Shown here: piece after piece, positions 25,708 to 56,232 of the stretch | Position numbering within the stretch: the first letter of the stretch is position 1 | Layout: each line of letters begins with the position of its first letter | NCBI GenBank assembly: GCA_919901585.1 | Contig: CAKKPH010000085.1 | Coordinates: forward strand, 1 to 56,233 | Length of the DNA: 56,233 nucleotides | DNA from: Thermodesulfovibrionales bacterium | Lineage (GTDB): Bacteria; Nitrospirota; Thermodesulfovibrionia; Thermodesulfovibrionales; UBA9159 | Reading direction: 5' to 3' | Notes under the pieces: model-generated | The model's input: only the letters and a program-made list of their open reading frames with translations | The model's database searches: none | Told to the model about the DNA's origin: nothing | Made by a program: the position numbers and the translations under genes

Positions 25708-27447
25708 ATGAGACTTACTGAAAACGCACTCAAAGTCCTCAAGGCAAGGTATCTACTTAAGGACAAGAGTGGGGATGTCATTGAAAGGCCTGAGGATATG
25801 TTCAGGCGTGTCGCATCCACAATCGCTTCAGCAGAAAAACAGTTCGGCAGTGACCCCCTTTTATGGGAAGATAAATTCTATGAGCTTATGACAGACCTAA
25901 GGTTCCTTCCAAACTCCCCTGCCCTTATGAATGCAGGAAGGGAGATAGGCCAGTTGGCAGCATGCTTTGTGCTCCCTGTTGATGACTCAATCCACAGCAT
26001 CTTTGACACACTAAGGAACTCTGCCCTGATACTCCAGAGCGGCGGAGGGACAGGCTTTTCCTTCTCGAGGCTCAGGCCAAAGACAGACCTTGTACGCTCG
26101 ACCGGCGGAATAGCGAGCGGCCCTGTATCGTTCATGAAGATATACAATACAGCCACAGAGGTTATCAAACAGGGCGGAGCAAGGCGAGGCGCCAACATGG
26201 GGATACTGCGCATAGACCATCCAGATATCCTCGACTTCATCCGTGTAAAGAGGAACGAGAATGAGCTTGCAAACTTTAACATATCAGTAGCCGTCACTGA
26301 CTCTTTTATGGATGCACTGAAGGCTGACACTGAGTACAGACTGATAAACCCAAGGAACAAGGCTACTACCGGCTCTGTTAAGGCCAGAGACGTATTCGAT
26401 GAGATAGTAGAAAGCGCATGGGAGACAGGAGACCCCGGCCTTATATTCATAGACAGGATAAACAGGTCCAACCCAACTCCTCAGTTGGGGGAAATAGAGA
26501 GCACAAACCCGTGCGGAGAACAGCCACTGCTCCCATATGAGGCATGCATCCTCGGGTCTATCAACCTTTCAAAATACGTGAGAAGGGCATCAGGAGGCAA
26601 CAAACCATCACTCAGGGATATCAGGAAGCATATTGATCTTGATGCGCTTTCGAGTGACATCAGGACTGCTGTCAGATTCCTTGACAATGCCATCGAGGTC
26701 AATAAATATCCCTTGCCTGACATTGAGGTTATGCATAAAGGCAACCGCAAGATAGGCCTCGGTGTCATGGGCTGGGCCGACATGCTGATACTGCTCGGGC
26801 TGCCGTATAACAACAAAACGGCCTTCAGACTCGCAAGAGAGATTATGCGTTTTATAAGCACTACCTCTAAAGAGGTATCAGCAGGGCTTGCAAATGAGAG
26901 AGGCTCCTTCCCAAATTTCGAGGCCTCTGTTTATAATACTTCAGGTATGCCCGGACTCAGGAATGCAACTACGACCACAATTGCACCAACCGGTACGCTC
27001 TCTATAATCGCCGACTGCTCTAACGGCATAGAGCCCATATTTGCAGTTGCATATAAGCGGCTGATACTCAATACAGAACTAATCGAGATAAATAAGTATT
27101 TTTTCAAAATAGCGAGGGAACAGGGCTTTTATACCAAGGAGCTCGAAGAAAAAATAATCAGGGAGGGAAGGCTGACAGGCTTAAAAGAGATCCCCCCTGA
27201 TATAAGGCGCATCTTCAGGACAGCCCACGAGATACTGCCGGACGACCATATAGAGATGCAGGCTGCATTTCAGGAGTACACAGACAATGCGGTCTCAAAG
27301 ACCATAAACATGCCGAAACACGCAAAGAAGGAAGAGATAAGCAGGGCCTTCCTGCTCGCCTACGAAAAAGGGCTCAAAGGGATAACCATATTCAGATACG
27401 GGACTGCAAAGGGGGGAACGCTTGTCAGGTTTGCAGAGTCCGATTAG
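25708..27447 (+). CDS. nrdJ: Adenosylcobalamin-dependent (class II) ribonucleotide reductase
   Basis: 579 aa with the N-terminal ALKVLKARYLLKD motif, the active-site NPCGEQPLLPYEACILGSINL, and class II length and organisation. Confidence 0.88.
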   Translation: MRLTENALKVLKARYLLKDKSGDVIERPEDMFRRVASTIASAEKQFGSDPLLWEDKFYELMTDLRFLPNSPALMNAGREIGQLAACFVLPVDDSIHSIFDTLRNSALILQSGGGTGFSFSRLRPKTDLVRSTGGIASGPVSFMKIYNTATEVIKQGGARRGANMGILRIDHPDILDFIRVKRNENELANFNISVAVTDSFMDALKADTEYRLINPRNKATTGSVKARDVFDEIVESAWETGDPGLIFIDRINRSNPTPQLGEIESTNPCGEQPLLPYEACILGSINLSKYVRRASGGNKPSLRDIRKHIDLDALSSDIRTAVRFLDNAIEVNKYPLPDIEVMHKGNRKIGLGVMGWADMLILLGLPYNNKTAFRLAREIMRFISTTSKEVSAGLANERGSFPNFEASVYNTSGMPGLRNATTTTIAPTGTLSIIADCSNGIEPIFAVAYKRLILNTELIEINKYFFKIAREQGFYTKELEEKIIREGRLTGLKEIPPDIRRIFRTAHEILPDDHIEMQAAFQEYTDNAVSKTINMPKHAKKEEISRAFLLAYEKGLKGITIFRYGTAKGGTLVRFAESD

Positions 27448-27451
27448 GGAT

Positions 27452-29143
27452 ATGGCAGGGGGTTTTAAAAAAAGCCTCGCGTTTAAGTACCTTATTTTTT
27501 GCGGGTTCCTGACGACAGTAACTATTTCGCTGCTGACTCTCTTTTTCGTAGGGAACAATGAGAGGATCATATATAACAGCGTCGAAAATGAGGCGAGGGC
27601 CCTGTTTAAACAGCTTGTGATAACAAGGAGGTGGATTGCTGACCATGGCGGAGTCTTTGTCGAGAAACTGCCGTGGGTGAAACCAAACCCATACCTCTCC
27701 GGCAAGGACGCTGAGATAACAGACATAAAAGGCAGGGTTTTTGTCAAGGCGAGCCCCGCAATGGTGACAAAAGACCTTTCAAGGTATACAAGAGATATGG
27801 GTGGTTACTGGTTCCATATAACAAGCCTCAAGCTAATGAACCCTGAGAATGCCCCTGATGCCTTTGAGAAAGAGTCCCTGAGTGTCTTTGAACAAGGGGC
27901 AGTGAGAGAGATATCGAGGATGGAAAAGATAGATAACCTCCACTACCTGCGATATATTGCACCCTTATATATTGAGTCAGCATGCCTCGACTGCCATGCA
28001 AAACACGGCTACAGGATTGGAGACGTAAGAGGCGCAATAAGTGTCTCTATGCCTGTCGAAAATGTGCTCTCTCAAATAAAGCAAACCAGGAGATATGCCG
28101 CCTTTGCAGCCTTACTCACAATAGTCCTGCTGACCGCATCCCTATACCTGATAATGAACAGGCTTTTCATGCTGCCTGTACGCAGGATGAATTCCCACAT
28201 CAGGGAATTCATGCCAAAAAGTTGCTGTATAAATACGGTTGAGGGGTCAGGAGATGAGCTTGATGAATTAGCCTCGTCTCTTAAGGAGATGGTCAGCACC
28301 ATCAAGGAATACCATTTCTGCATGGAAGAAAAGATAAAGAGTGCGGTGAGCGATCTTGAAGATACAAACATAAGGCTGATGGAGGCAAATAAAAAACTGC
28401 TGGACATCGACAAGAGAAAATCGGACTTTGTGGCAAAGGTCTCGCATGAGCTCAGGACACCGCTCACATCAATAAAGGGAGCGATGGACTATATATCTGC
28501 AAGACTACAGTCCGTAACTGCAGGGGGGAGCAAAAATATCAGCATCCAAGAGTTAAAGAAGCTTGATGACCTCCTCGCCTTCTTCGATATCATAAAGAAT
28601 AACTCTGAAAGGCTGATAAGGATGGTAAACGACATACTCGACCTCGAAAGGATTGAGCAGGGGAATGCTGAAATGCATTTCACAGAAATTGACATGGCCG
28701 CTGTTATAGATGAAACCGTCAAGGGCATCTCTGCTTCTTCTGCTGAGAGAGGCATCGGCATCCATGTCGAGGCTGAAATCGGCGCTTTGGTGCGTGCTGA
28801 TGAGGACAGGATTAAACAGGTGATCATAAACCTGATCTCAAATGCGATAGAATACAGTCCGGTCAACTCCGATATCCAGATCAAGGTGCTCTCAAAGGAC
28901 GGCTCAGCAATTGTTATAGTAAAAGACAATGGCCCCGGCATACCAAAAGAAGAACAGGAGAGGATCTTCGACCGCTTTTACACTATAGGCAGTAAAAAAG
29001 GCACCGGGCTCGGGCTCGCAATATCAAAGGGTATAATAGAGGCACACGGAGGCATTATAGGTATTGTGAGCGACAGCCACAGCGGAAGCTCGTTTTATTT
29101 AAAACTGCCGTTGGCAGCAGAGGCGACATCGTGCAAAACTTAA
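27452..29143 (+). CDS. Sensor histidine kinase with a periplasmic/extracytoplasmic DUF3365-type c-haem (CxxCH) sensor domain
   Basis: N-terminal TM helix and a DUF3365-like segment containing ACLDCHAKHGYRIGDVRGAISVSMP. A second TM/HAMP region follows, then the H-box SHELRTPLTSI and G-boxes DNGPGIP and GTGLGLAISK. The ATG at 27452 avoids overlap with nrdJ. Confidence 0.85.
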   Translation: MAGGFKKSLAFKYLIFCGFLTTVTISLLTLFFVGNNERIIYNSVENEARALFKQLVITRRWIADHGGVFVEKLPWVKPNPYLSGKDAEITDIKGRVFVKASPAMVTKDLSRYTRDMGGYWFHITSLKLMNPENAPDAFEKESLSVFEQGAVREISRMEKIDNLHYLRYIAPLYIESACLDCHAKHGYRIGDVRGAISVSMPVENVLSQIKQTRRYAAFAALLTIVLLTASLYLIMNRLFMLPVRRMNSHIREFMPKSCCINTVEGSGDELDELASSLKEMVSTIKEYHFCMEEKIKSAVSDLEDTNIRLMEANKKLLDIDKRKSDFVAKVSHELRTPLTSIKGAMDYISARLQSVTAGGSKNISIQELKKLDDLLAFFDIIKNNSERLIRMVNDILDLERIEQGNAEMHFTEIDMAAVIDETVKGISASSAERGIGIHVEAEIGALVRADEDRIKQVIINLISNAIEYSPVNSDIQIKVLSKDGSAIVIVKDNGPGIPKEEQERIFDRFYTIGSKKGTGLGLAISKGIIEAHGGIIGIVSDSHSGSSFYLKLPLAAEATSCKT

Positions 29144-29811
29144 TCCTTGTTGTTGATGACGACACGGACATCCTGAAGGTCTTAAAGGCGAACCTTGAGC
29201 TCCACGGGTTCAGGGTCATGACATCCGACAGGTGGTCTGCTGCGGAAAAACTACTCTCAGAAAAGGTGCCTGACCTCATCATACTTGACCTTATGCTGCC
29301 TGACGGCAACGGGATAGACATATGCCGCACACTCCGTTCCAGGTTCCCGTCCATACCGGTCATAATGCTCACTGCAATGGACAAGGTTTCCGACAAGGTC
29401 ATAGGGCTCGAAAGCGGTGCTGACGATTATATTGTGAAGCCTTTTGAGACACTTGAGCTGATTGCGAGGATAAAGGTCTGTCTGAGAAGGACAATGCCGG
29501 CAACGTCAAACAAGTCGGTCATCGGAGGCCTCGCAGTGGATTACAGGACAAGGAGTGTTACTATTAAAGGCAAGGAAGTCACCCTCACACCAAAGGAATA
29601 TGAGCTGCTCTGCTTCTTCATTTCGAGGAGGGGTGAGGTCATAGACAGGAATATGCTGAGACAGCACCTCTGGAAGGACTCACAGATTTATTCATGGAGC
29701 AGGGTGATAGATGTGCATATACAGCACCTGAGGCAGAAGATCGAGAAAGACCCTGCAGACCCGGAGTACATACTCACTGTGCCGGGTGCAGGATACCGGT
29801 TCAGAGAGTGA
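29131..29811 (+). CDS. OmpR/PhoB-family response regulator
   Basis: 226 aa with a receiver domain (VVDDD, DLMLPDG) and a winged-helix domain (LTPKEYELLCFF, TVPGAGYRF). The GTG start overlaps the kinase gene. Confidence 0.92.
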   Translation: MQNLILVVDDDTDILKVLKANLELHGFRVMTSDRWSAAEKLLSEKVPDLIILDLMLPDGNGIDICRTLRSRFPSIPVIMLTAMDKVSDKVIGLESGADDYIVKPFETLELIARIKVCLRRTMPATSNKSVIGGLAVDYRTRSVTIKGKEVTLTPKEYELLCFFISRRGEVIDRNMLRQHLWKDSQIYSWSRVIDVHIQHLRQKIEKDPADPEYILTVPGAGYRFRE

Positions 29812-31087: not shown

Positions 31088-31255
31088 AGTGGATTATAAC
31101 CCAATTAACTATCTTACGGACAGTTTGTCTGCTCGCTACAAAGCAGGAAGATTTGCTTGACATTTCCCTTGATTAATATAAAATTAGACTCGAAGGTTGG
31201 TTTTTTCCCTTATTGAAGCAGTAATGGCTTTTTTATTAACCCGTAGAAGGGCAGC

Positions 31256-32548
31256 ATGATAAAACTTAAAGACGTTTCCCAGCCATATTTTATATTATGG
31301 GGTTCTCTATTACTTTCTCTCGCCATAAGCCTCACAGATTCAATATCGACAGCGCATGCCGAAGAATATCCTGCATATTTTTCATCACGTACATATCTGG
31401 GGTTTTACGAAGATATGTACGGCAACCGATATGCTCCTCTCTATGAATACTTTGAAGTTGAATACAATAGGCCCTCAAACGGAATGAAGTTTTATTCTGC
31501 AGGATGGCTTAAGTATGATTTCAGGACATCCGGCGAAAAAAGGACAAACTCTGACCTTGGCCTTGCATATGTTACCTACTCTCCTCCGTCTGATTCAAAC
31601 CTTGTCTTCAACGCAGGAAGGCATTATGTATTTGAAGGCGTCGCCTCGGAACAGATTGACGGCGTTAGCGCAAGATGGGATTTTGCCCGGAACACCGGTC
31701 TTTCACTTTACGGCGGGATACCTGTAGAGACAGATAAGGACGGCAGAGACTCCGACACGATTTACGGATGCAGGCTGTTTGGGAGGATATCAGGCAAGGC
31801 AGAAGCAGGTGTATCATTTCTCAGGGAGGATAATGCAGGAATACGGTACCGCGAGGAGATAGGATTAGACCTATGGGCGATTCCATTCCGGGGAATTGAA
31901 ATACAGGGCATTTCTTCCTACAATGCCATTACAGGAGGTTTCATTGAGCATTCCTACAGCGCAAAAGCTGCCGTATCGAGAAAGATAACCTTAAGAGGCT
32001 TTTTTGTTCATTCGAATTACAGAGACGCATTTTCTTCAGCAACCTTGAGTGTCTTTTCACCGGACAATATTGGGATTAACGGTAAAATGACAAAGTCAGG
32101 GATCTCTGCAGAATACCTTATCTCAGAAGGTATTGCTACAACATTGAATTATACAGGCTATACTTACCAAACTTCAGGTGATGCCCGGCATTACGGCGCA
32201 AGGCTCCACTACAAAGGAACAGACATACATGCCGGTGGCGCATTCAACCGCATGGAAGGAGACACTGCAAGGCTGAGATATACTGAAATGCGTCTATATA
32301 CGGTCAAGCGGCTTGACAAACACAATTTCTCGCTTGATTTCATCACCCTTCGCTATGACAGACCATACAACAATATGAACATCGCTTATAATTTAAACGG
32401 AACTGCAGAGTATGTTATAAACAACAATTTATCTGCATCTCTGAGCATTGACAAGGGCAGGGACCCTGATTATAATCACTTTACAAAGGTGATGCTTTCG
32501 CTTGCCTATACTTTTAAAGGCGCACTTTCGGTTCAGGCAGGCTATTAA
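31256..32548 (+). CDS. Predicted outer-membrane beta-barrel (porin-like) protein, no haem motif
   Basis: Sec signal peptide (cleavage about AHA|EE). It has a long run of alternating hydrophobic/aromatic beta-strand patterns, many Tyr/Gly/Asn turns, and a C-proximal ...LSLAYTF strand. Confidence 0.55.
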   Translation: MIKLKDVSQPYFILWGSLLLSLAISLTDSISTAHAEEYPAYFSSRTYLGFYEDMYGNRYAPLYEYFEVEYNRPSNGMKFYSAGWLKYDFRTSGEKRTNSDLGLAYVTYSPPSDSNLVFNAGRHYVFEGVASEQIDGVSARWDFARNTGLSLYGGIPVETDKDGRDSDTIYGCRLFGRISGKAEAGVSFLREDNAGIRYREEIGLDLWAIPFRGIEIQGISSYNAITGGFIEHSYSAKAAVSRKITLRGFFVHSNYRDAFSSATLSVFSPDNIGINGKMTKSGISAEYLISEGIATTLNYTGYTYQTSGDARHYGARLHYKGTDIHAGGAFNRMEGDTARLRYTEMRLYTVKRLDKHNFSLDFITLRYDRPYNNMNIAYNLNGTAEYVINNNLSASLSIDKGRDPDYNHFTKVMLSLAYTFKGALSVQAGY

Positions 32549-32560
32549 TGAGGAGTTGCG

Positions 32561-33040
32561 ATGAGGTATGATGAATTTAGATATTTAGGAATTTTCCTCA
32601 CAGCTCTCATGGCGCTGAACCATATCTATGCGCTGCCTGCTTTATCAGAGGAAAAAAGAGTTTCTCCCAATAGCCACCACTTTGACCTTATCGAAAAACC
32701 TCTATGCACAGAGTGCCACATGAGCGATGACAGCGCAGATCTGAAGCCCATCTCCTCATTTAACCACAGCAGTGATTTCATCAGCAGCCACAGGTTCTAT
32801 GCAATGCAGCGTTCACAGATATGCACAGTATGCCACAGGGCATCTTTCTGCTCAGACTGCCATACCAACAAATCAGGGCTGAAACCTTCAGACAGGTATC
32901 AGGGCTCCCCTGAACGGTGGCTGCCACACAGGGGAAATTATCTCTTCCAACACAGGATAGACGGCAGCATTGACCCAACAAGCTGCTTCAGGTGTCACGG
33001 AAGACGGAACAACAAGCTATGCGTAAAATGCCACAAATAA
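32561..33040 (+). CDS. Small periplasmic multihaem cytochrome c (5 CxxCH motifs)
   Basis: 159 aa with a signal-like N-terminus. The motifs are CTECH, CTVCH, CSDCH, CFRCH and CVKCH. Confidence 0.8.
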   Translation: MRYDEFRYLGIFLTALMALNHIYALPALSEEKRVSPNSHHFDLIEKPLCTECHMSDDSADLKPISSFNHSSDFISSHRFYAMQRSQICTVCHRASFCSDCHTNKSGLKPSDRYQGSPERWLPHRGNYLFQHRIDGSIDPTSCFRCHGRRNNKLCVKCHK

Positions 33041-33762
33041 GAACCCCCTTTCCTTTACAACATGCATGCTTATGCATCAGGCTTGCCCTCTGTATGTTCT
33101 GCAGTCTAAACATTGCCTTTTTCCTGTGCGCATGCGGCACCAGTTCAGAGTCCGGCGTTTATGACATCAATAAAGGGCATAAATCAGCATGGGCTAATCC
33201 TGAATATATAGGCAAAGACGGATTTCATGGTTCACATGTCAGAGTCGTTGATGGCGAACCGCTGGGGACTGCGCTGTTTTTAAGGAGGTGCGCCGGCTGC
33301 CACGGGAACGAAGGTTCCGGAAAGATCGGCCCTGACATCCGGGGCAGTACTGCCACTCAGATCCGGTATTGCCTTGAGTCTGTCACTTATATGAAATGGC
33401 TTCGGATTATGCGCGATGAAGACCTTCAGGCAATCTCTGATTATCTTGCGAGTTCGCAACCTGCCGGCACGGTGAGCAGGCCTTCCGCTGTAAGCGCTGA
33501 TTCCTGCACTGAGTGCCACGGCACAGACTTAAAAGGAGGTATTTCTAAAATAAGTTGTTATTCGTGCCATAGCGGTCCGGACGGAACAGTAGGACACCCG
33601 GATGGATGGCTTTCACAAAATAGCAACCTTTCGAACTATCACGGCAGATATGCAAAGGACTATGCAACAGCATGTACTGCATGTCATGGCCCTGACCTTA
33701 GAGGTCCGGCTTTGCCAAGCTGCTATAACTGCCATGACGGCAGCGAATGGGCCCCCTTTTAA
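33019..33762 (+). CDS. Lipoprotein multihaem cytochrome c (class I cytochrome c domain plus two doubled-CxxCH units; 5 CxxCH)
   Basis: Lipobox-like FFLCAC. CAGCHGNEGSGKIGPDIRG is a class I domain. CTECHGTDLKGGISKISCYSCH and CTACHGPDLRGPALPSCYNCH are paired CxxCH units. The start codon is uncertain (32992, 33019 or 33028). Confidence 0.75.
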   Translation: MRKMPQIRTPFPLQHACLCIRLALCMFCSLNIAFFLCACGTSSESGVYDINKGHKSAWANPEYIGKDGFHGSHVRVVDGEPLGTALFLRRCAGCHGNEGSGKIGPDIRGSTATQIRYCLESVTYMKWLRIMRDEDLQAISDYLASSQPAGTVSRPSAVSADSCTECHGTDLKGGISKISCYSCHSGPDGTVGHPDGWLSQNSNLSNYHGRYAKDYATACTACHGPDLRGPALPSCYNCHDGSEWAPF

Positions 33763-33814
33763 TGGGGATGGCAAAGGAACAGAGTCCATTATGTAACCGA
33801 AAAGGAGGTTTACA

Positions 33815-34591
33815 ATGATTAAGAAAGTATCATTTTTGTCACCTGCATTACTTTCCCTTTTTTTGCTTGCCGCTGCCTCTAATGCTGCGGACTATCAAAT
33901 CAACATATGGGACAACTTCTTTGACCCGCAGACCATCACTATAAATGCCGGCGACACGGTAACATGGCAGAACTATGGGAACTTCATCCACACTGCAACG
34001 AGCGGCACAAACTGCAATTCCGACGGGAAATTCAATAGCGGCAATCTCTCAAAAAACCAGGCATATACTGTCCAGTTCAACGAGGCAGGGACTTACACTT
34101 ATTTCTGCATACCCCATTGCATGGCAGGCATGACAGGCACAATTACTGTAAATCCATCCACCCTCCCGCTGCCAAGCAGCCAGCAGAGCTTCAGTTATGC
34201 GCCTATATCATCCGCTGTGCTTAACCCGGACCCTTCTCAGGCAAAACCTATCGGCGTAGGTGATATCGCTACCGGAGGCGTTAACCTGGAGTTGGCTGTA
34301 AGCACAACTACATTCTCCGGCCCGGCAGACGTCTATTTTGCAATCGCAGCCCCTGCAATTGATTCCGACATCTACCTGCTTGATAAGAATTATGTCCTGC
34401 AGAAGCTCTCAGCGGCCGGCCTTGTACCATGGAAAGAGGATGTAACTGTGGTGAATGAACAGCTTTTCGGGAAGATAAACGTAACAACATCGGGCTTGCC
34501 GAAAACAACATACTACCTTTATCTTGCGGTAACTCCGGCAAACAGCTTTGGAACATATTATCTCTGGACGACCTATTTCATAGTACAATAG
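33815..34591 (+). CDS. Secreted type-1 copper (cupredoxin, plastocyanin/amicyanin-like) protein with an uncharacterised ~150-aa C-terminal domain
   Basis: Signal peptide, then the cupredoxin pattern ITINAGDTVTWQN...FIHTATSG. The ligand loop YFCIPHCMAGM matches C-x2-H-x4-M. Confidence 0.8.
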   Translation: MIKKVSFLSPALLSLFLLAAASNAADYQINIWDNFFDPQTITINAGDTVTWQNYGNFIHTATSGTNCNSDGKFNSGNLSKNQAYTVQFNEAGTYTYFCIPHCMAGMTGTITVNPSTLPLPSSQQSFSYAPISSAVLNPDPSQAKPIGVGDIATGGVNLELAVSTTTFSGPADVYFAIAAPAIDSDIYLLDKNYVLQKLSAAGLVPWKEDVTVVNEQLFGKINVTTSGLPKTTYYLYLAVTPANSFGTYYLWTTYFIVQ

Positions 34592-37567: not shown

Positions 37568-38350
37568 CTACAGAGACTTGAAGGCTTCCGCAACCCTTAT
37601 CTTTGACGCATAGATTGCAGGATAAATACTGGCTGCAATCGTGGTTACAGTACCGAGTATTATTGCCATAACAAAAAATGACGGATTAATCTTTATCGCT
37701 ATATCTTTGAAGAGTATCGGGCCGACGATATATGCCAGGCCGCTCCCGATAATAAAGCCAATGACTCCCCCGGTAATACCGATCAGGGCTGCCTCGTAAA
37801 GGAACAACCTGATAAGCTGGCCTTTTGATGCACCCATTGCCTTCAGGAGCCCTATGTCCCGCAAACGGCTGTGGATGGAACCGAGTATTATATTGAAGAC
37901 CCCAATACAACTGATTATTAGCGCCGCTACCACAAAGCTCAAGAGCAGTGTAGCTGTTTTCTGAAATATCTTTGATTGTGCAGTAGCTATCTCACTCTGT
38001 GATGTGGCCCTTACACCCAGTATCTTTTTATTTATCTCGATAGCAGCATCTCCTACAGGACATTTTGGACACATTGCCCTAACATTCATCATCGAGACCT
38101 TTCCCAGCTTCCCGAATACGGTCTGGCAGGCCTTAAGGTTCATGAAAACCATATAATCGTCAGGGGAGTCAGTCTCTCGTAAAATACCTGTAACCTTCAT
38201 TTTGCTCTGCGCTATATCAAGGACATCTCCCACCTTTGTGTCCGTTATGACAGCGAAAAGCTTCCCGGCCATTACCTCATCGTCATTTACCATGAATCTG
38301 CCCTCAGAAATTTCCCACCAGAACCTCGCCACCTGTTCTTTCTGCAGCAT
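37568..38350 (-). CDS. C-terminal part (periplasmic domain remainder plus FtsX module) of a MacB-like ABC permease interrupted by an in-frame TAG
   Basis: 260 aa with the FtsX TM bundle and DIGLLKAMGASKGQLI. It is in the same reading frame as 38390-38782, separated by one TAG plus 13 sense codons. Confidence 0.7.
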   Translation of the reverse strand: MLQKEQVARFWWEISEGRFMVNDDEVMAGKLFAVITDTKVGDVLDIAQSKMKVTGILRETDSPDDYMVFMNLKACQTVFGKLGKVSMMNVRAMCPKCPVGDAAIEINKKILGVRATSQSEIATAQSKIFQKTATLLLSFVVAALIISCIGVFNIILGSIHSRLRDIGLLKAMGASKGQLIRLFLYEAALIGITGGVIGFIIGSGLAYIVGPILFKDIAIKINPSFFVMAIILGTVTTIAASIYPAIYASKIRVAEAFKSL

Positions 38351-38389
38351 TACACCACCGACAATGACATCTCTACCCTTGACCGTAGT

Positions 38390-38782
38390 CTATTCATATA
38401 GCCTGGGGGCAAAGGTAGGCGGCGGGAAGGCTGCTCCGCCTATAGTGCCATCCTGAAACACAAGGGCGCCCATTTTTTCCCATCCTGAAACTATTGCATC
38501 CTGGTAAACCTTTTCTATTTCAGGAATGGCAGCCTCGGGTATATACGTTCCTGTACCAATTCCAAAGGTCTTCAGACTCTGCTGCGATTTGCTATCCACA
38601 GGTGTTATGGTGAGGCTGTGTCCGTAACGTGCGATCACCTGGAAAACCTCCCTCTGGCCTGAAGATGCTGTTATCATAACGGATATGAGCATAGAGACCG
38701 CTATCGCTATCCCAAGAGAGGTATATATGGTCCTCATCTTCCTTTTTCTTACCTCTTTCATAGCGATCATGTAAAGCTTCAT
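38390..38782 (-). CDS. N-terminal part (TM1 plus start of periplasmic domain) of the same interrupted MacB-like permease
   Basis: 130 aa starting MKLYMIAMKEVRKRKMRTIYTSLGIAIAV..., the typical FtsX-family N-terminus. It ends at TAG (38392-38390). The two fragments plus the linker total about 404 codons, the same size as the three intact permeases in this window. Confidence 0.7.
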   Translation of the reverse strand: MKLYMIAMKEVRKRKMRTIYTSLGIAIAVSMLISVMITASSGQREVFQVIARYGHSLTITPVDSKSQQSLKTFGIGTGTYIPEAAIPEIEKVYQDAIVSGWEKMGALVFQDGTIGGAAFPPPTFAPRLYE

Positions 38783-40783: not shown

Positions 40784-42256
40784 TCACGTAGTGGTGCTGC
40801 GACTTATCGCCAGCTCTTTCAGGCTTCTCGGCACTATAACACTGTCATGATGTCCTGCGCCGCTCGGGAGGAAACCTATAAGCTTATCACTCTTCACATC
40901 TATTATAAACATACCTGATACTGTTTTTTGGTATCCGCTAAAGACTCCGAGGAGATGTTTGCCGTCGCCTGTCACACCCATTGTATGGACGTCTGGTCCG
41001 ATCTCTATCTCCTTTATAACCTCCCATTTAACAGCATCTATCACTGCAACACTGTTAGGAGTCGGAGATGGCCACCACAAGGCAACATAGACCTTTTTTG
41101 CATCAGGAGTGAATCCCATATGGAAGGTCTGAGGGTAAGTTCCTCTCCATTCCGGTTTCGTTACAACAGCTTTCTGCTTCCAGTTCATAGGATTTGATTG
41201 GTCGGTTGAATCATACACATATATGGCATTCTCCATTACCGCACCCATGAAGAGGAAGTGTTTCCCGTCAGGCGAAAACCCTGCCTGATGACCATAGTTC
41301 TCTACTTTTGCTACGGAGATCTCCCAGGTGTCTTTATCGATTTTCTTGAGTGCCTGCATCGGCTTGTTTCTGGCTGAGTACATAGCTGCAACAGGCTCAT
41401 AATTGGCCGTGTCAAAGACTACTGAGACACCTGATGTCCTGAGTGCAGCTACTGCCCATTTGCCCCTTGGGTCAAAGAGGACTGCGTCAAGTCCGCATAC
41501 ATTCGTTGCCCTCGGACCTGAAACCTTGCCCTCAACGAGAAAATTCTCTCCGCCGGGAACGAGTTCCCAATCAATCTTGATACCCTTTAGGCCTTTGTAG
41601 TCATATTTACCTGTCTTCGGGTCAGGGTGCAATTTCTTTACTATGAGTTTGCCCCCACCGCTCCATGCCTCTTTTACATTCTTGATATTAGGTATCCAGT
41701 CAAAGAAAACAGCTGCGTCAACCTTTGATGTTTCCCTATCGAATACACCAAAAATGTCCTTCTGCCCGTCTGAAACAGTAAACTTCTTTGCATCGTGTGA
41801 GATAGTCACATGGACTCCTATGCCGAGTCCGGTTGTCTCTGCAACATCCTCAATGAGATTCATCTTTGTACCGTCGTACTTAACCCTGTAGATATGAAAA
41901 CCCTCGGCGGGTTCTTTGACTTTAGTGGGAATACCGTAAATATAGAGGTTTTTTCCTCCCTGCGAATTCACAATAAACTCAAAACCCTTATAGGGGTCTT
42001 CAGATGGGAATGCAGCTATATGATGGATAATCGGATTTGTGTCACCATAGTTAACAAAAGAAATCCATGCAAGGGTTCTCCCTGTTGACATATCGTGAGC
42101 TGCAACAGTCCCGGCAAATTTCCCAGGCAAAAGGAAAATATATTTTCCTATTTTCTCGTAAACATCATTTAACGACGCACCCTGCGAAGCTGCCGGCAGA
42201 CTAAATATGGAAAGCAAAATAAAAAGAGCAACAATCTTTTTCTTACAGTGCTGCAT
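40784..42256 (-). CDS. Secreted beta-propeller copper enzyme, thiocyanate dehydrogenase (TcDH)-like
   Basis: 490 aa with a Sec signal peptide (AAS|QGA region) and repeated propeller-blade patterns. K46, H78-H79, H149, E231, D257, H323, F378-H379, H424 and H470 reproduce the spacing of the TcDH active-site residues as I remember them (K103, H135/H136, H206, E288, D314, H381, F436/H437, H482, H528). A strong AGGAGGT SD is present. Confidence 0.7.
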   Translation of the reverse strand: MQHCKKKIVALFILLSIFSLPAASQGASLNDVYEKIGKYIFLLPGKFAGTVAAHDMSTGRTLAWISFVNYGDTNPIIHHIAAFPSEDPYKGFEFIVNSQGGKNLYIYGIPTKVKEPAEGFHIYRVKYDGTKMNLIEDVAETTGLGIGVHVTISHDAKKFTVSDGQKDIFGVFDRETSKVDAAVFFDWIPNIKNVKEAWSGGGKLIVKKLHPDPKTGKYDYKGLKGIKIDWELVPGGENFLVEGKVSGPRATNVCGLDAVLFDPRGKWAVAALRTSGVSVVFDTANYEPVAAMYSARNKPMQALKKIDKDTWEISVAKVENYGHQAGFSPDGKHFLFMGAVMENAIYVYDSTDQSNPMNWKQKAVVTKPEWRGTYPQTFHMGFTPDAKKVYVALWWPSPTPNSVAVIDAVKWEVIKEIEIGPDVHTMGVTGDGKHLLGVFSGYQKTVSGMFIIDVKSDKLIGFLPSGAGHHDSVIVPRSLKELAISRSTTT

Positions 42257-42623: not shown

Positions 42624-42917
42624 CTATAATCTCTCCAGATGGGGGTGACAACGCCGGCAATCAAGGTGAGGACAACCCTTGAAAGGCTCCTTCATCAGGT
42701 TAGAATGTATTGACTCAATCCAGAGTTTTTTCAGCAGATCAAGGTTGAATGTACGGGATGTATGGCATGAGATTGTCCTCTCATGACACTCGCTGCAGAG
42801 ACGGTATGTTTTCACAGTACTGCTGCTTAATAAAACAGTTGAGAAGCCTATTGCGATAAAAGCAACCAGTAGGCTTGTCAGGATTAAATGCCTCCGGCTT
42901 GTCTTGAACATATGCAT
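42624..42917 (-). CDS. Small membrane-anchored dihaem cytochrome c
   Basis: 97 aa with an N-terminal TM helix (LILTSLLVAFIAIGFSTVLL) and two CxxCH motifs (CSECH, CRRCH). It has its own sigma-54 promoter. The SD is weak. Confidence 0.55.
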   Translation of the reverse strand: MHMFKTSRRHLILTSLLVAFIAIGFSTVLLSSSTVKTYRLCSECHERTISCHTSRTFNLDLLKKLWIESIHSNLMKEPFKGCPHLDCRRCHPHLERL

Positions 42918-54012: not shown

Positions 54013-55008
54013 CTACATCAGCTCATAAACGTAAATACTCCCCTTCTGGTAATGCAGCTTAAACTTCTCAAGATTGAACGGGTTGGATGAGGTAAACGGC
54101 AAGAGCTTTGCTATGAGTTTGGCCTTATCCTCGTCTTTCGTAAGGTAATAGACCCTCACCGAGCCTTCACTTGAAGGTTCGACCATATAATTCTTTATCC
54201 CTTTTTCATTCATCCAGACCTTGACCTGCTTGATTGTCCCGTGAATATCGCCGGCCAAGACAAATTCCTTATATTCGACACCGAACTTCCCCTTTGTGAG
54301 TTCATTGAGGGCGGTCAGGTCCCTGAAGTCCGCAACAATAAAAGTCCTTTTGCCCTGAGAGAGGTCTTTCAGAATGCGGTAGCCTTCTTCCTCTCCGGAG
54401 AGCATGGCATCAGTATATTTTTTAAACCTCTCATGTCCTTCCTTCGTAGTCTTACCCTTCCAGAACCCTCTCTCAAAGTCTGATATCGCCTTTGAGTGCT
54501 TCTGCCATATATCAGGGATAAAGAGCGGATAGCCGATATGTTCATCTGCAAGCACAGCCCTCTCTGTAAAGAGTTTTATTCTTAGACAGTTGTCCCACCA
54601 CGACATCAGCAGGTCGCCCTCTCCGGTATTCTTGAGTATCTCCTTGTAGAGCGCCTGATATACCTCATTGCTGACCGGAAGTGTTATGACCGGAAACGGA
54701 CTGTCAGACTTGTAATCAATAAGCACAGGCGGACTATTCTTCCTTTCGGCTGTATAGAAAGTTGCTACAGGTTTATCAATGGTCGGAAGCCTGGTTTCGT
54801 ATTTTTTGATAGTAAGGTCTTCATTGCCGCTGATATTGAGATCAGTAAACTTTGAAGGTTTCCCTGTCTCTTTGAGGACATACTTGTAGGGAATATTTCC
54901 GCCAGAACTATAAAGGTTGTAAATATAGTACAAAAAAAGGGAAAGCCCTCCTGCAATCATCAGGAATCCGATGGTCAGGAGGGCCTTCTTCTTAAGACCG
55001 TCTTTCAC
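54013..55008 (-). CDS. Uncharacterised N-terminally membrane-anchored protein immediately downstream of the HAO-family gene (HaoB-like position and architecture)
   Basis: 331 aa with a single N-terminal TM helix (ALLTIGFLMIAGGLSLFLYYIY) and a large extracytoplasmic domain. It starts 25 nt after the HAO-like stop. Homology to HaoB cannot be verified from memory. Confidence 0.5.
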   Translation of the reverse strand: MKDGLKKKALLTIGFLMIAGGLSLFLYYIYNLYSSGGNIPYKYVLKETGKPSKFTDLNISGNEDLTIKKYETRLPTIDKPVATFYTAERKNSPPVLIDYKSDSPFPVITLPVSNEVYQALYKEILKNTGEGDLLMSWWDNCLRIKLFTERAVLADEHIGYPLFIPDIWQKHSKAISDFERGFWKGKTTKEGHERFKKYTDAMLSGEEEGYRILKDLSQGKRTFIVADFRDLTALNELTKGKFGVEYKEFVLAGDIHGTIKQVKVWMNEKGIKNYMVEPSSEGSVRVYYLTKDEDKAKLIAKLLPFTSSNPFNLEKFKLHYQKGSIYVYELM

Positions 55009-55032: not shown

Positions 55033-56232
55033 TCACTTCTTTCTCGTTGTATGGTACAGGATCAGTCCTCCGACAAGCAGCAGGCCCATCCCTGTGAAGC
55101 CTACAGCGCTCGCCTTCAGTCTGTTGTTTGTCTGCTCCACACCCGCAATCTTCTTCTTGAGTGCAGCCATTTCCCTTATCTTTGTGTTCTCGTCCATTAT
55201 CCTTGCATATCTGCCGAGCAGCGGCACCCATCCGTGAGAGTATGTGTAACCTCCTGGGTTCATATGGGTAGCGCCTTTATAGAGCTTAATTAAATCATGC
55301 TCCCACATCTCAGCATATTCCCTCTCGATTGCAGACGGGTTATTCCCCTGTGCCCAGAAGAGCTGTAGGAAGTCACCCGGTCCGTCTTTAGTAGGTGCCG
55401 GAGGCATAGGACGGTTGGTCTTCTGTCCGGTAAGCAGGCCCTCATTGTATAAGGCCTGAACTACTTTCTTCGCCTCCTGCTCTTTCTCGATACCGGCAAA
55501 GATGGCCTGATCCGCAGTCTTGAGATATTCTTCTGCAAACCTTCCACTGTGGCAGTTCTGGCATGTTTTTACCCAGAGAGCCTGCCGCTTTGTGAACCAT
55601 TCGTGGTTGAGGTTGTTTGCGATCTCAGGTGTCGGATTAAAGGCCCACCTTACCTTCCTGACGAGATTATGACTGAATTCACCGTCTGTCTCGAAGTGGC
55701 AGAAAGCACATGTTGGAGCAGTCAAGCCGCCCTTGGAAATAGCATCCTTAAGCGGTGCTTCCCAGTCCCATTTGTTGCCCTGCGTGTAGTAAACAGTGCC
55801 ATGTTTTGAGAGCTGGTAATTCTCGAACTCATTGTGGTCAACACCGTTATGGCACATTGCACATGCCTCAGGCTTCCTTGCCTCTGCTGCTGAGAAGGTA
55901 TGCCTTGTGTGGCAGCCATCACACTTGTTCTGGTTGTAGTGGCAGGAGTCGCAGCCCTGTGCTATTGCGCGCTGCGGCATGCCGGCCCATATTGCGGTTT
56001 CTACATTTGCGCGGTAGTCAAGGGCATGCGAAGGCCTTCCGTCAGGCCACTGGCCTTGCGGCCATTTCAGCTCTTTTTCAGACTCGGATTCGACAAACTC
56101 CTTAAGGTGGCACGTGCCGCACGAAGCCCTGTCAGGCAGTTTAAGGTTTTTGGCATGGTCAACCTTTTTTACGCCTACACCTGCGTGGCAATCTATGCAG
56201 CCGACTTCCTTAAGCTGGGCGTCCTTGCCTAA
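55033..56232 (-). CDS. Hydroxylamine oxidoreductase (HAO)-family multihaem cytochrome c, 5'-partial (runs off the window), with a C-terminal TM helix
   Basis: The frame stays open upstream of the ORF-track Met through to the window edge (LGKDAQLKEVGCIDCHAG...). Seven CxxCH motifs lie in the window: CIDCH, CGTCH, CDSCH, CDGCH, CAMCH, CAFCH and CQNCH. The HAO-type motif CHNGVDHNEFENYQLSKHG is present, as is the C-terminal anchor GFTGMGLLLVGGLILY. Confidence 0.8.
   Translation of the reverse strand, partial: LGKDAQLKEVGCIDCHAGVGVKKVDHAKNLKLPDRASCGTCHLKEFVESESEKELKWPQGQWPDGRPSHALDYRANVETAIWAGMPQRAIAQGCDSCHYNQNKCDGCHTRHTFSAAEARKPEACAMCHNGVDHNEFENYQLSKHGTVYYTQGNKWDWEAPLKDAISKGGLTAPTCAFCHFETDGEFSHNLVRKVRWAFNPTPEIANNLNHEWFTKRQALWVKTCQNCHSGRFAEEYLKTADQAIFAGIEKEQEAKKVVQALYNEGLLTGQKTNRPMPPAPTKDGPGDFLQLFWAQGNNPSAIEREYAEMWEHDLIKLYKGATHMNPGGYTYSHGWVPLLGRYARIMDENTKIREMAALKKKIAGVEQTNNRLKASAVGFTGMGLLLVGGLILYHTTRKK

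Follow-up and report, generated by a model that had tools for sequence, protein, structure and literature searches.

When an uncultured bacterium encodes an outer-membrane beta-barrel beside multihaem cytochromes, does the locus build an electron conduit across the outer membrane, and in which direction would electrons flow? Porin–cytochrome (Pcc) conduits serve electron exchange with minerals, electrodes and other cells. Their direction can rarely be read from genomes, and the core conduit genes alone do not give it. We analysed a locus that raises this question in a Thermodesulfovibrionales bacterium (GTDB lineage Bacteria; Nitrospirota; Thermodesulfovibrionia; Thermodesulfovibrionales; UBA9159). 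The DNA studied is positions 1 to 56,233 of contig CAKKPH010000085.1 (GenBank assembly GCA_919901585.1), hereafter called the window.

The open reading frame (ORF) listing of the window contains four consecutive plus-strand genes (Table 1). They encode a barrel protein without a haem motif, a 159-aa soluble-type pentahaem cytochrome, a five-haem cytochrome with a lipobox-like motif, a class I domain and two doubled CxxCH units, and a type-1 copper protein (C-x2-H-x4-M) with an unassigned C-terminal domain. A preliminary description of this DNA had reported these four co-directional genes, and each was found in place with the features described. Convergent with them lies a gene cluster that includes a thiocyanate dehydrogenase (TcDH). 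The reading that we favour, if with measured assurance, is that the locus encodes a Pcc-type conduit that works with the cupredoxin and carries electrons inward.

A three-gene module conserved in two phyla

We identified 80 loci that encode a homologue of the barrel in a scan of one genome per GTDB species. Together with two further loci, these make a set of 82. They are found in Nitrospirota metagenome-assembled genomes and in Geobacteraceae/Desulfuromonadales, including Geomonas isolates. In 79 of the 82 loci the barrel gene is directly followed by a gene for a protein with five CxxCH motifs (131–232 aa, as called by a longest-ORF method). The three exceptions to this gene order (L006, L056 and L074) end at a contig edge. 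Every complete middle gene captured encodes exactly five CxxCH motifs, and its start usually falls within a few bases of the barrel stop, with a gap or an overlap. Most pentahaem proteins of the family are lipoproteins with a lipobox, unlike that of the window.

The third gene encodes a multihaem cytochrome with 5–26 haems, eight being common. Nearly all third-gene products have an L-x-G-C lipobox followed by a Gly/Ser linker. They share a conserved N-terminus, M-[SP]-Q-[IV], a consequence of a start codon placed within the sequence for the final CxxCH motif of the pentahaem protein. This embedded start codon indicates that the second and third genes are translationally coupled. Many loci also encode decahaem cytochromes of 750–1000 aa nearby. 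Retention of the three-gene order across the 82 loci rules out a chance association.

A plug-less barrel and its candidate occupant

The barrel protein begins with a signal peptide (helix at residues 11–31, AHA/EE site), and a motif scan found no CxxCH in it. An AlphaFold2 model based on an alignment of 54 homologues has a mean predicted local distance difference test score (pLDDT) of 85.8 and consists of the signal helix followed by 22 antiparallel beta-strands. The model contains no plug domain, and its loops are short except for one longer loop at residues 255–276.

Pfam and NCBIfam gave no match for the window barrel. Among the 54 family members, eight match Porin_4, four match OMP_b-brl and none matches MtrB_PioB (Pfam). 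A Foldseek search of the PDB with the barrel model returned only generic large outer-membrane barrels with TM-scores of ~0.5 (the FimD and PapC ushers, Occ porins and BtuB), which assign no family. MtrB was absent among the best 50 Foldseek matches listed. An exhaustive profile search (E up to 1e-3) places 1045 representatives at 50% identity in the barrel family.

Several family members are fused to other domains. P0313 has a C-terminal OmpA peptidoglycan-binding domain, and P0337, P0394 and P0260 have SPOR domains; P0260 also contains two cytochrome domains, one class I and one c7-type. Four CxxCH motifs stand at the C-terminus of P0258. Closer relatives (P0004, P0005, P0021, P0034, P0057 and P0256) begin with a class I monohaem cytochrome c of ~100 aa. 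These fusions indicate that both barrel termini are periplasmic and that the barrel is physically tied to cytochromes.

TonB-dependent receptors, whose barrels are of this 22-strand size class, enclose a plug of ~150 residues. We infer that a plug-less barrel of this size requires an occupant, for which the mature pentahaem protein (~125 residues) is the obvious candidate.

The pentahaem protein has CxxCH motifs at residues 49, 88, 97, 142 and 154 and a plain, cysteine-free signal peptide. An alignment of 48 pentahaem proteins contains the five CxxCH motifs and exactly five further histidines (H39, H69, H77, H123 and H131) as invariant positions, which points to five bis-His haems. A profile search recovered 1138 clusters at 90% identity. 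Where hits are named, the label is ‘cytochrome C’ or ‘hypothetical protein’, and the best 120 profile hits include neither a named Ext/Oma protein nor a named Geobacter sulfurreducens protein. Comparison with Pfam and NCBIfam yielded sub-threshold hits only. Comparison of the profile with PDB sequences yielded just weak NrfH and NapB matches (E of at least 0.008) and no convincing solved relative.

These results bear on the simplest alternative, that the barrel is an ordinary diffusion porin and that the cytochromes and cupredoxin are unrelated periplasmic carriers adjacent to it by chance. Such a porin would fit a barrel that matches no Pfam or NCBIfam family, has some relatives that match Porin_4 and finds only generic barrels by Foldseek. 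It would not, however, account for an invariant gene order and translational coupling across two phyla, or for the barrel–cytochrome fusions in the family. The window barrel is also unlike diffusion porins of 16–18 strands, in that it has 22 strands and no constriction loop or plug. We regard the diffusion-porin explanation as very improbable.

The preliminary description had suggested a porin–cytochrome conduit as one of two options. That option is well supported by the 22-strand barrel, the gene order in 79 of the 82 loci and the cytochrome, OmpA and SPOR fusions, and we hold with good confidence that the module forms a trans-outer-membrane conduit.

The lipoprotein cytochrome

CxxCH motifs stand at residues 100, 172, 189, 228 and 244 of the third protein. 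Its lipobox-like LCAC sequence is followed by a Gly/Ser linker (GTSSESG). A class I cytochrome c domain, of the His/Met type, spans residues 92–152 (PF13442, 2.7e-9; PF00034, 5.8e-9), and the C-terminal part consists of two dihaem repeats of the form C..CHG.DL.G....SC..CH. We propose that this lipoprotein is the cell-surface end of the conduit.

In locus L002 (10200–11489), where the barrel is fused to a cytochrome, the third-gene cytochrome has 429 aa and six haems and includes PKD domains. PKD domains are usually extracellular, which lends support to surface exposure of the third-gene cytochrome.

Class I cytochromes and cupredoxins mark one Nitrospirota subclade

A neighbour-joining tree of 85 barrels groups the window lineage (the window, L083 and L085/L086) with L001–L006, L087 and L088. 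The third-gene product contains a full class I domain in all 13 entries of this clade (>90 bits). Outside the clade, class I matches in third-gene products are short, score ~20 bits and lie around a CxxCH motif. Pentahaem proteins that have a cysteine-free signal peptide and no lipobox occur in the clade lineages and in about ten loci outside. Barrels with an N-terminal class I cytochrome c (L002, L004, L005, L006 and L087) are found only in this subclade.

The same two-domain cupredoxin adjoins the module in the window lineage, L004, L005 and L087. Additional cupredoxins are encoded in L087 and L004, a protein with a weak Cupredoxin_1 match lies upstream of the module in L001, and an extra 108-aa class I (monohaem) cytochrome c lies downstream in L088. 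A cupredoxin or an extra class I cytochrome c thus accompanies the module in 7 of 9 subclade lineages. No cupredoxin adjoins the module in the other ~70 loci of the set. The presence of cupredoxins beside the module only in the subclade indicates that the cupredoxin belongs with this version of the conduit. The combination with a cupredoxin had been called unusual in the preliminary description, and cupredoxin neighbours are indeed confined to one Nitrospirota subclade among the 82 loci. We think it probable that the cupredoxin is the conduit’s partner.

Other neighbours of the module were also observed in this subclade. In L087 (7131–7972) the module is flanked by a small Cupredoxin_1 protein and a DUF4079 membrane protein. 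In L001 and in L089, which is on the same contig as L003, it is flanked by CHRD-domain proteins. The Cupredoxin_1/DUF4079 and CHRD neighbours could be further pathway components.

Residues 36–113 of the window cupredoxin match PF00127 (1.1e-13; 51.8 bits against a cut-off of 21.2). Copper ligands read from the sequence are H59, C98, H101 and M106. None of the more specific NCBIfam models, for plastocyanin, amicyanin and pseudoazurin, is matched above its cut-off. In an AlphaFold2 model, the cupredoxin domain (aa 26–113; 33890–34153) has pLDDT values >90. It is followed by a disordered linker (aa 117–154) and a beta-sandwich (aa ~155–258; 34277–34588) with pLDDT values of 70–90.

Pfam assigns no family to the C-terminal part of this gene product. 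Linker and beta-sandwich together make up a unit of ~140 aa (aa 117–258; 34163–34588) with a conserved PSQAKPIGVG motif. Secreted NHL, BACON, fn3, PPC and CHRD proteins contain homologues of this unit (P0066–P0072) in N-terminal, central or C-terminal position, which identifies it as a mobile extracytoplasmic module. We considered a C-terminal sorting signal and ruled it out, as the unit is also N-terminal and mid-protein elsewhere. A docking or anchoring role is possible. CHRD domains are also fused to homologues of the window cupredoxin itself (P0067 and P0122).

Relationship to characterised conduits

The Pcc class comprises porins with 18–22 trans-membrane motifs, which are smaller than MtrB, and periplasmic cytochromes with 5–14 haems that co-evolve with the porin (PMC4245776). 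The outer lipoprotein cytochromes of this class are extremely variable and show no co-evolution with the porin (PMC4245776, Shi et al. 2014). The module described here has the same gene order, a barrel whose 22 strands lie within the 18–22 range, a five-haem middle cytochrome and a variable outer cytochrome. We have filed it under the Pcc class by architecture, with the named Pcc proteins compared by description only. Those named proteins (OmbB-OmaB-OmcB, ExtBCD, ExtEFG and GM18_3461-3463) share the layout of a porin, a small multihaem cytochrome and a lipoprotein multihaem cytochrome. As in the module, doubled CxxCH units make up their outer cytochrome, whose number of haems varies widely. 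The five-haem type GM18_3461-3463 is the nearest counterpart among these clusters.

ExtBCD and ExtEFG of G. sulfurreducens each combine a porin, a pentahaem lipoprotein and a larger cytochrome (PMC6148476, Jimenez Otero et al. 2018). The GM18_3461-3463 cluster of Geobacter sp. M18 combines the five-haem type with a small cytochrome that has atypical motifs, beside a ten-haem protein, and the 5 + 6 haems of this complex were argued to be sufficient to cross the membrane (PMC4245776). Two Geomonas loci in our set (L030 and L037) have a layout like that of the M18 cluster. They encode a barrel, a 145-aa pentahaem protein and a 231-aa lipoprotein in which two of the five motifs are atypical, and continue with a 498–509-aa lipoprotein and a decahaem cytochrome of ~1020 aa.

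The window differs from the Geobacter Pcc systems in several respects. Its host belongs to the Nitrospirota, and its pentahaem protein has a plain signal peptide rather than the lipobox of most homologues. Its outer cytochrome has gained a class I domain, and its operon has gained a two-domain cupredoxin. In relatives of the window locus, moreover, the barrel N-terminus is extended by a class I cytochrome c.

Two Fe(II)-oxidising systems, MtoAB-MtoD (Sideroxydans) and PioABC (Rhodopseudomonas palustris), follow the same idea of a barrel, an inserted multihaem cytochrome and a small soluble one-electron carrier, to which MtoAB and PioAB hand electrons on their way inward. The carrier there is a class I cytochrome (MtoD) or an iron–sulfur protein of the high-potential type (PioC, a HiPIP), whereas here it is a cupredoxin (PMC4412085, PMC10304953). 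The MtoAB and PioAB barrels belong to the MtrB/PioB family, have 26–28 strands and pair with a decahaem cytochrome, whereas the window barrel has 22 strands and pairs with a pentahaem cytochrome. Profile comparison with known barrel families, named in the preliminary description as a way to place the barrel, was run for the MtrB/PioB families and matched neither the window barrel nor the 54 family members. We rejected identity with MtrCAB, MtoAB or PioAB on the lack of an MtrB_PioB match in Pfam or NCBIfam, the 22 strands, and the 159-aa cytochrome with five haems rather than ten.

In Acidithiobacillus, Cyc2 works with a cupredoxin. Cyc2 is an Fe(II) oxidase formed by a single polypeptide, in which a short segment with one haem precedes a 16-strand barrel (PMC13647500, PMC9040806). 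Cyc2 thus likewise ties a barrel to a c-type haem, and some relatives of the window barrel have an N-terminal monohaem cytochrome c fusion. The fused part in these relatives is a full class I domain of ~100 aa on the same barrel family, unlike the short segment of Cyc2. Identity with Cyc2 was rejected: the window barrel has no haem motif, has 22 strands rather than 16 and is followed by two multihaem cytochromes.

The preliminary description had also pointed to the rus operon (cyc2, cyc1, coxBACD, rus). No cox genes, dihaem cyc1 or Cyc2-type barrel are found in or beside the operon, and we rejected this identity. A thematic resemblance remains.

PCC3 and PCC4 of neutrophilic Fe(II) oxidisers are candidate porin–cytochrome clusters that were found by the same genomic logic. 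PCC3 has medians of 21 periplasmic and 34 extracellular haems and a conserved inner-membrane protein with five transmembrane helices (PMC5566968, He et al. 2017), and PCC4 lacks an extracellular cytochrome (PMC5566968). Neither identity was retained: the haem counts of the module are 5 + 5, and its operon encodes no membrane protein of this kind. A Pcc variant in Nitrospirota that includes a cupredoxin and class I domains appears to have no description in the literature searched.

Proposed mechanism and direction of electron flow

In the mechanism that we propose, the plug-less 22-strand barrel would serve as an insulating sheath. The mature pentahaem protein, with its five bis-His haems, would sit inside the barrel as a haem wire ~40 Å long. 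The lipoprotein cytochrome would cap one face, most likely at the cell surface, and would add its class I haem and a group of four haems set close together. The resulting ten haems would be sufficient to cross the membrane, as was argued for the M18 complex. At the periplasmic end, the cupredoxin would exchange single electrons and link the conduit to the rest of the respiratory chain. Electrons from an extracellular donor (Fe(II), a reduced mineral or a partner cell) would pass through the conduit to the cupredoxin.

Several observations bear on an inward direction. First, the class I domains and cupredoxins added in the subclade are expected to be high-potential one-electron carriers, which favours inward flow. 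To our knowledge, characterised reducing conduits are not encoded with cupredoxins or such small carriers. Second, MtoD is a class 1 cytochrome (+155 mV) in the mtoAB cluster (PMC4412085), and PioC is a HiPIP in the pio operon (PMC10304953). Finally, TcDH in the window points to a lithotroph whose periplasmic electron pool has a high potential, which would fit inward flow. By analogy with these systems, inward flow may be the direction, a tentative assignment to which, taken by itself, we give slightly less than even weight.

The same architecture could instead operate outward, as in Geobacter, with respiratory electrons passed to humics, a partner cell or Fe(III)/Mn(IV) oxides. Adaptation to higher-potential acceptors, e.g. 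Mn(IV), would then be the part played by the cupredoxin and class I domain. The family is common in Geobacteraceae, including Geomonas isolates, and its layout equals that of Pcc/Ext clusters for which genetic work has shown a role in the reduction of Fe(III), Mn(IV) and electrodes (PMC6148476, PMC11389400). The all-bis-His haems of the plug and the large decahaem cytochromes near many loci would also suit an outward route. All other clades, however, lack the cupredoxins, the class I domain and the barrel-fused class I cytochrome c. These subclade traits resemble the carriers encoded with the oxidising conduits MtoD and PioC belong to, and we know of no cupredoxin co-encoded with a characterised reducing conduit. 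We consider outward flow rather unlikely for the window, although it keeps appreciable weight.

The reading that we favour, a conduit that carries electrons inward to the cupredoxin, has several points to answer. The wider family is abundant in Fe(III)-reducing Geobacteraceae, where outward flow is the family default, and bis-His ligation of all plug haems is more typical of low-potential chains. The two-domain cupredoxin is missing from L001, L002, L003 and L088 within the subclade itself. Its C-terminal unit is common to extracellular-looking fn3, BACON and NHL proteins, so the cupredoxin may not be periplasmic. Neither an inner-membrane redox partner nor a terminal oxidase is encoded in the window. 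The case for insertion of the pentahaem protein into the barrel, finally, is one of size and synteny.

Thiocyanate dehydrogenase is a neighbour rather than a consistent partner

The convergent neighbour (40784–42256, minus strand) is a 490-aa protein that aligns over residues 23–490 with the TcDH structures 8q9x, 5f75 and 6uwe (E 1e-192 to 1e-200). It is ~65% identical to the best-aligned of these and, judged by sequence, is a true TcDH homologue. Besides TcDH, the cluster comprises genes for a MASE3 histidine kinase, a sigma-54 regulator and a small CxxCH protein, as well as two FtsX/ABC pairs, a YtkA-like protein and three unknown proteins. It matches the Thioalkalivibrio TcDH cluster, which is flanked by electron-carrier genes on the opposite strand (PMC5328954). 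TcDH has been described as a thiocyanate:cytochrome c oxidoreductase (PMC5328954), and cytochrome c552 co-purifies with it (PMC9456337).

These features make it necessary to weigh a further alternative, in which the module, or the cupredoxin and class I haem, would form the electron-acceptor chain of TcDH, possibly leading out through the conduit. The enzyme needs a high-potential one-electron acceptor, and electron-carrier genes flank the Thioalkalivibrio cluster on the opposite strand, as the module does here. The adjacency is also kept in related genomes whose proteins are 75–80% identical. This conservation, however, is limited to the window’s own lineage, and in one of its members (L083) two extra genes lie between the TcDH cluster and the module. 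The two gene groups are transcribed convergently. No TcDH was found in the 82 module loci. A metagenome scan for TcDH relatives returned three loci only, too small a number for statistics; one of these, L091 from another organism (TcDH 67% identical), retains the whole TcDH cluster in the same order with no module or cupredoxin after YtkA. In L004, L005 and L087 the module has the same cupredoxin beside it as in the window, with no TcDH within 8–10 kb.

The TcDH cluster also has a conserved small CxxCH protein of its own. Between the sigma-54 regulator and TcDH, a 97-aa ORF (42624–42917, minus strand) encodes an N-terminal hydrophobic segment and the motifs CSECH and CRRCH. L091 has a homologue at the same position (38% identity over 42 aa; pairwise E 2e-10), and the protein may serve the TcDH cluster as its dedicated small cytochrome. 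A periplasmic enzyme, moreover, has no need of an outer-membrane barrel. The suggestion in the preliminary description that the module is the acceptor chain of the neighbouring copper enzyme is not borne out by the 82 loci or by L091, and we judge it improbable.

A looser coupling of TcDH and the module may exist through a shared periplasmic carrier. In one such arrangement, an inward, high-potential Nitrospirota Pcc conduit fed by Fe(II), Mn(II) or reduced minerals would deliver electrons to a cupredoxin that also takes electrons from TcDH. We consider this combination distinctly unlikely.

One permease of the TcDH cluster is interrupted in the window. In an FtsX/MacB-type permease gene (37568–38782), an in-frame TAG (38390–38392, minus strand) replaces a Glu codon, leaving ORFs of 130 aa and 260 aa. 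The counterpart in L083 is intact (404 aa, 92.6% identical). The TAG is either a nonsense mutation that creates a pseudogene or a sequencing error.

Operon structure and other features of the window

The tight packing of the four genes leads us to propose that they form one operon. The barrel and pentahaem genes are 12 nt apart, with a GAGGAG ribosome-binding site ahead of the latter. The third ORF as listed spans 32992–33762. Its probable start is ATG 33019 or 33028, overlapping the pentahaem gene, which stops at 33040. As in its homologues, this start codon (M-P-Q-I) sits within the final CxxCH motif of the pentahaem gene. The cupredoxin gene follows after 52 nt and is preceded by an AAGGAGG ribosome-binding site. 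A sequence scan found no terminator-like hairpins in the gaps between the four genes.

Table 1. Coordinates of the conduit genes and the candidate promoter in the window
Feature	Position	Strand	Size or motif	Basis or remark
Barrel gene	31256..32548	+	430 aa	AlphaFold2, Foldseek, family profiles
Pentahaem gene	32561..33040	+	159 aa	CxxCH count, invariant His, synteny
Lipoprotein pentahaem gene	33019..33762	+	~244-247 aa	ORF opens at GTG 32992
Two-domain cupredoxin gene	33815..34591	+	258 aa	PF00127, AlphaFold2
Sigma-70-like promoter candidate	31157..31184	+	TTGACA, 16 nt, TAAAAT	~72 nt 5' of barrel gene

The promoter candidate agrees with the consensus at 11 of 12 positions, a consensus match only, and lies inside the 168-nt gap that follows a divergent DUF401 gene. 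A perfect sigma-70 consensus (TTGACA, 17 nt, TATAAT) is also present at 32448–32476 (plus strand), within the 3' end of the barrel gene and ~85 nt 5' of the pentahaem start. Such a match could arise by chance or mark an internal promoter.

A histidine kinase and an OmpR-type response regulator are encoded 5' of the module (27422–29811, plus strand), with the divergent DUF401 gene in between. The periplasmic part of the kinase contains a CLDCH motif, and this part is annotated as a Tll0287-like domain in the relative L083. This arrangement is kept within the window lineage (L083, L085 and L086). The pair could regulate the operon.

Near the contig end, a minus-strand gene (55033–55980) encodes a cytochrome that matches PF13447 (Multi-haem_cyto, E 1.6e-101), with the match starting at profile position 79 of 269. 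It adjoins a gene for a 331-aa protein without a Pfam match (54013–55008, minus strand).

Implications

The family to which this conduit belongs is large, with ~1000 barrel representatives (50% identity) and >1100 pentahaem clusters (90% identity), yet essentially unannotated. Its compact 5 + 5 haem system lends itself to structural and synthetic work. Were the cupredoxin to serve both the conduit and TcDH, solid-phase donors and thiocyanate would feed one periplasmic copper/haem pool.

If the inward reading is true, the subclade traits would allow electron-uptake versions of the Geobacter-type conduit to be recognised by their sequence. Such a signature would help to tell which of the uncultured Nitrospirota that are common in groundwater, soils and subsurface fractures oxidise iron or minerals rather than reduce them.

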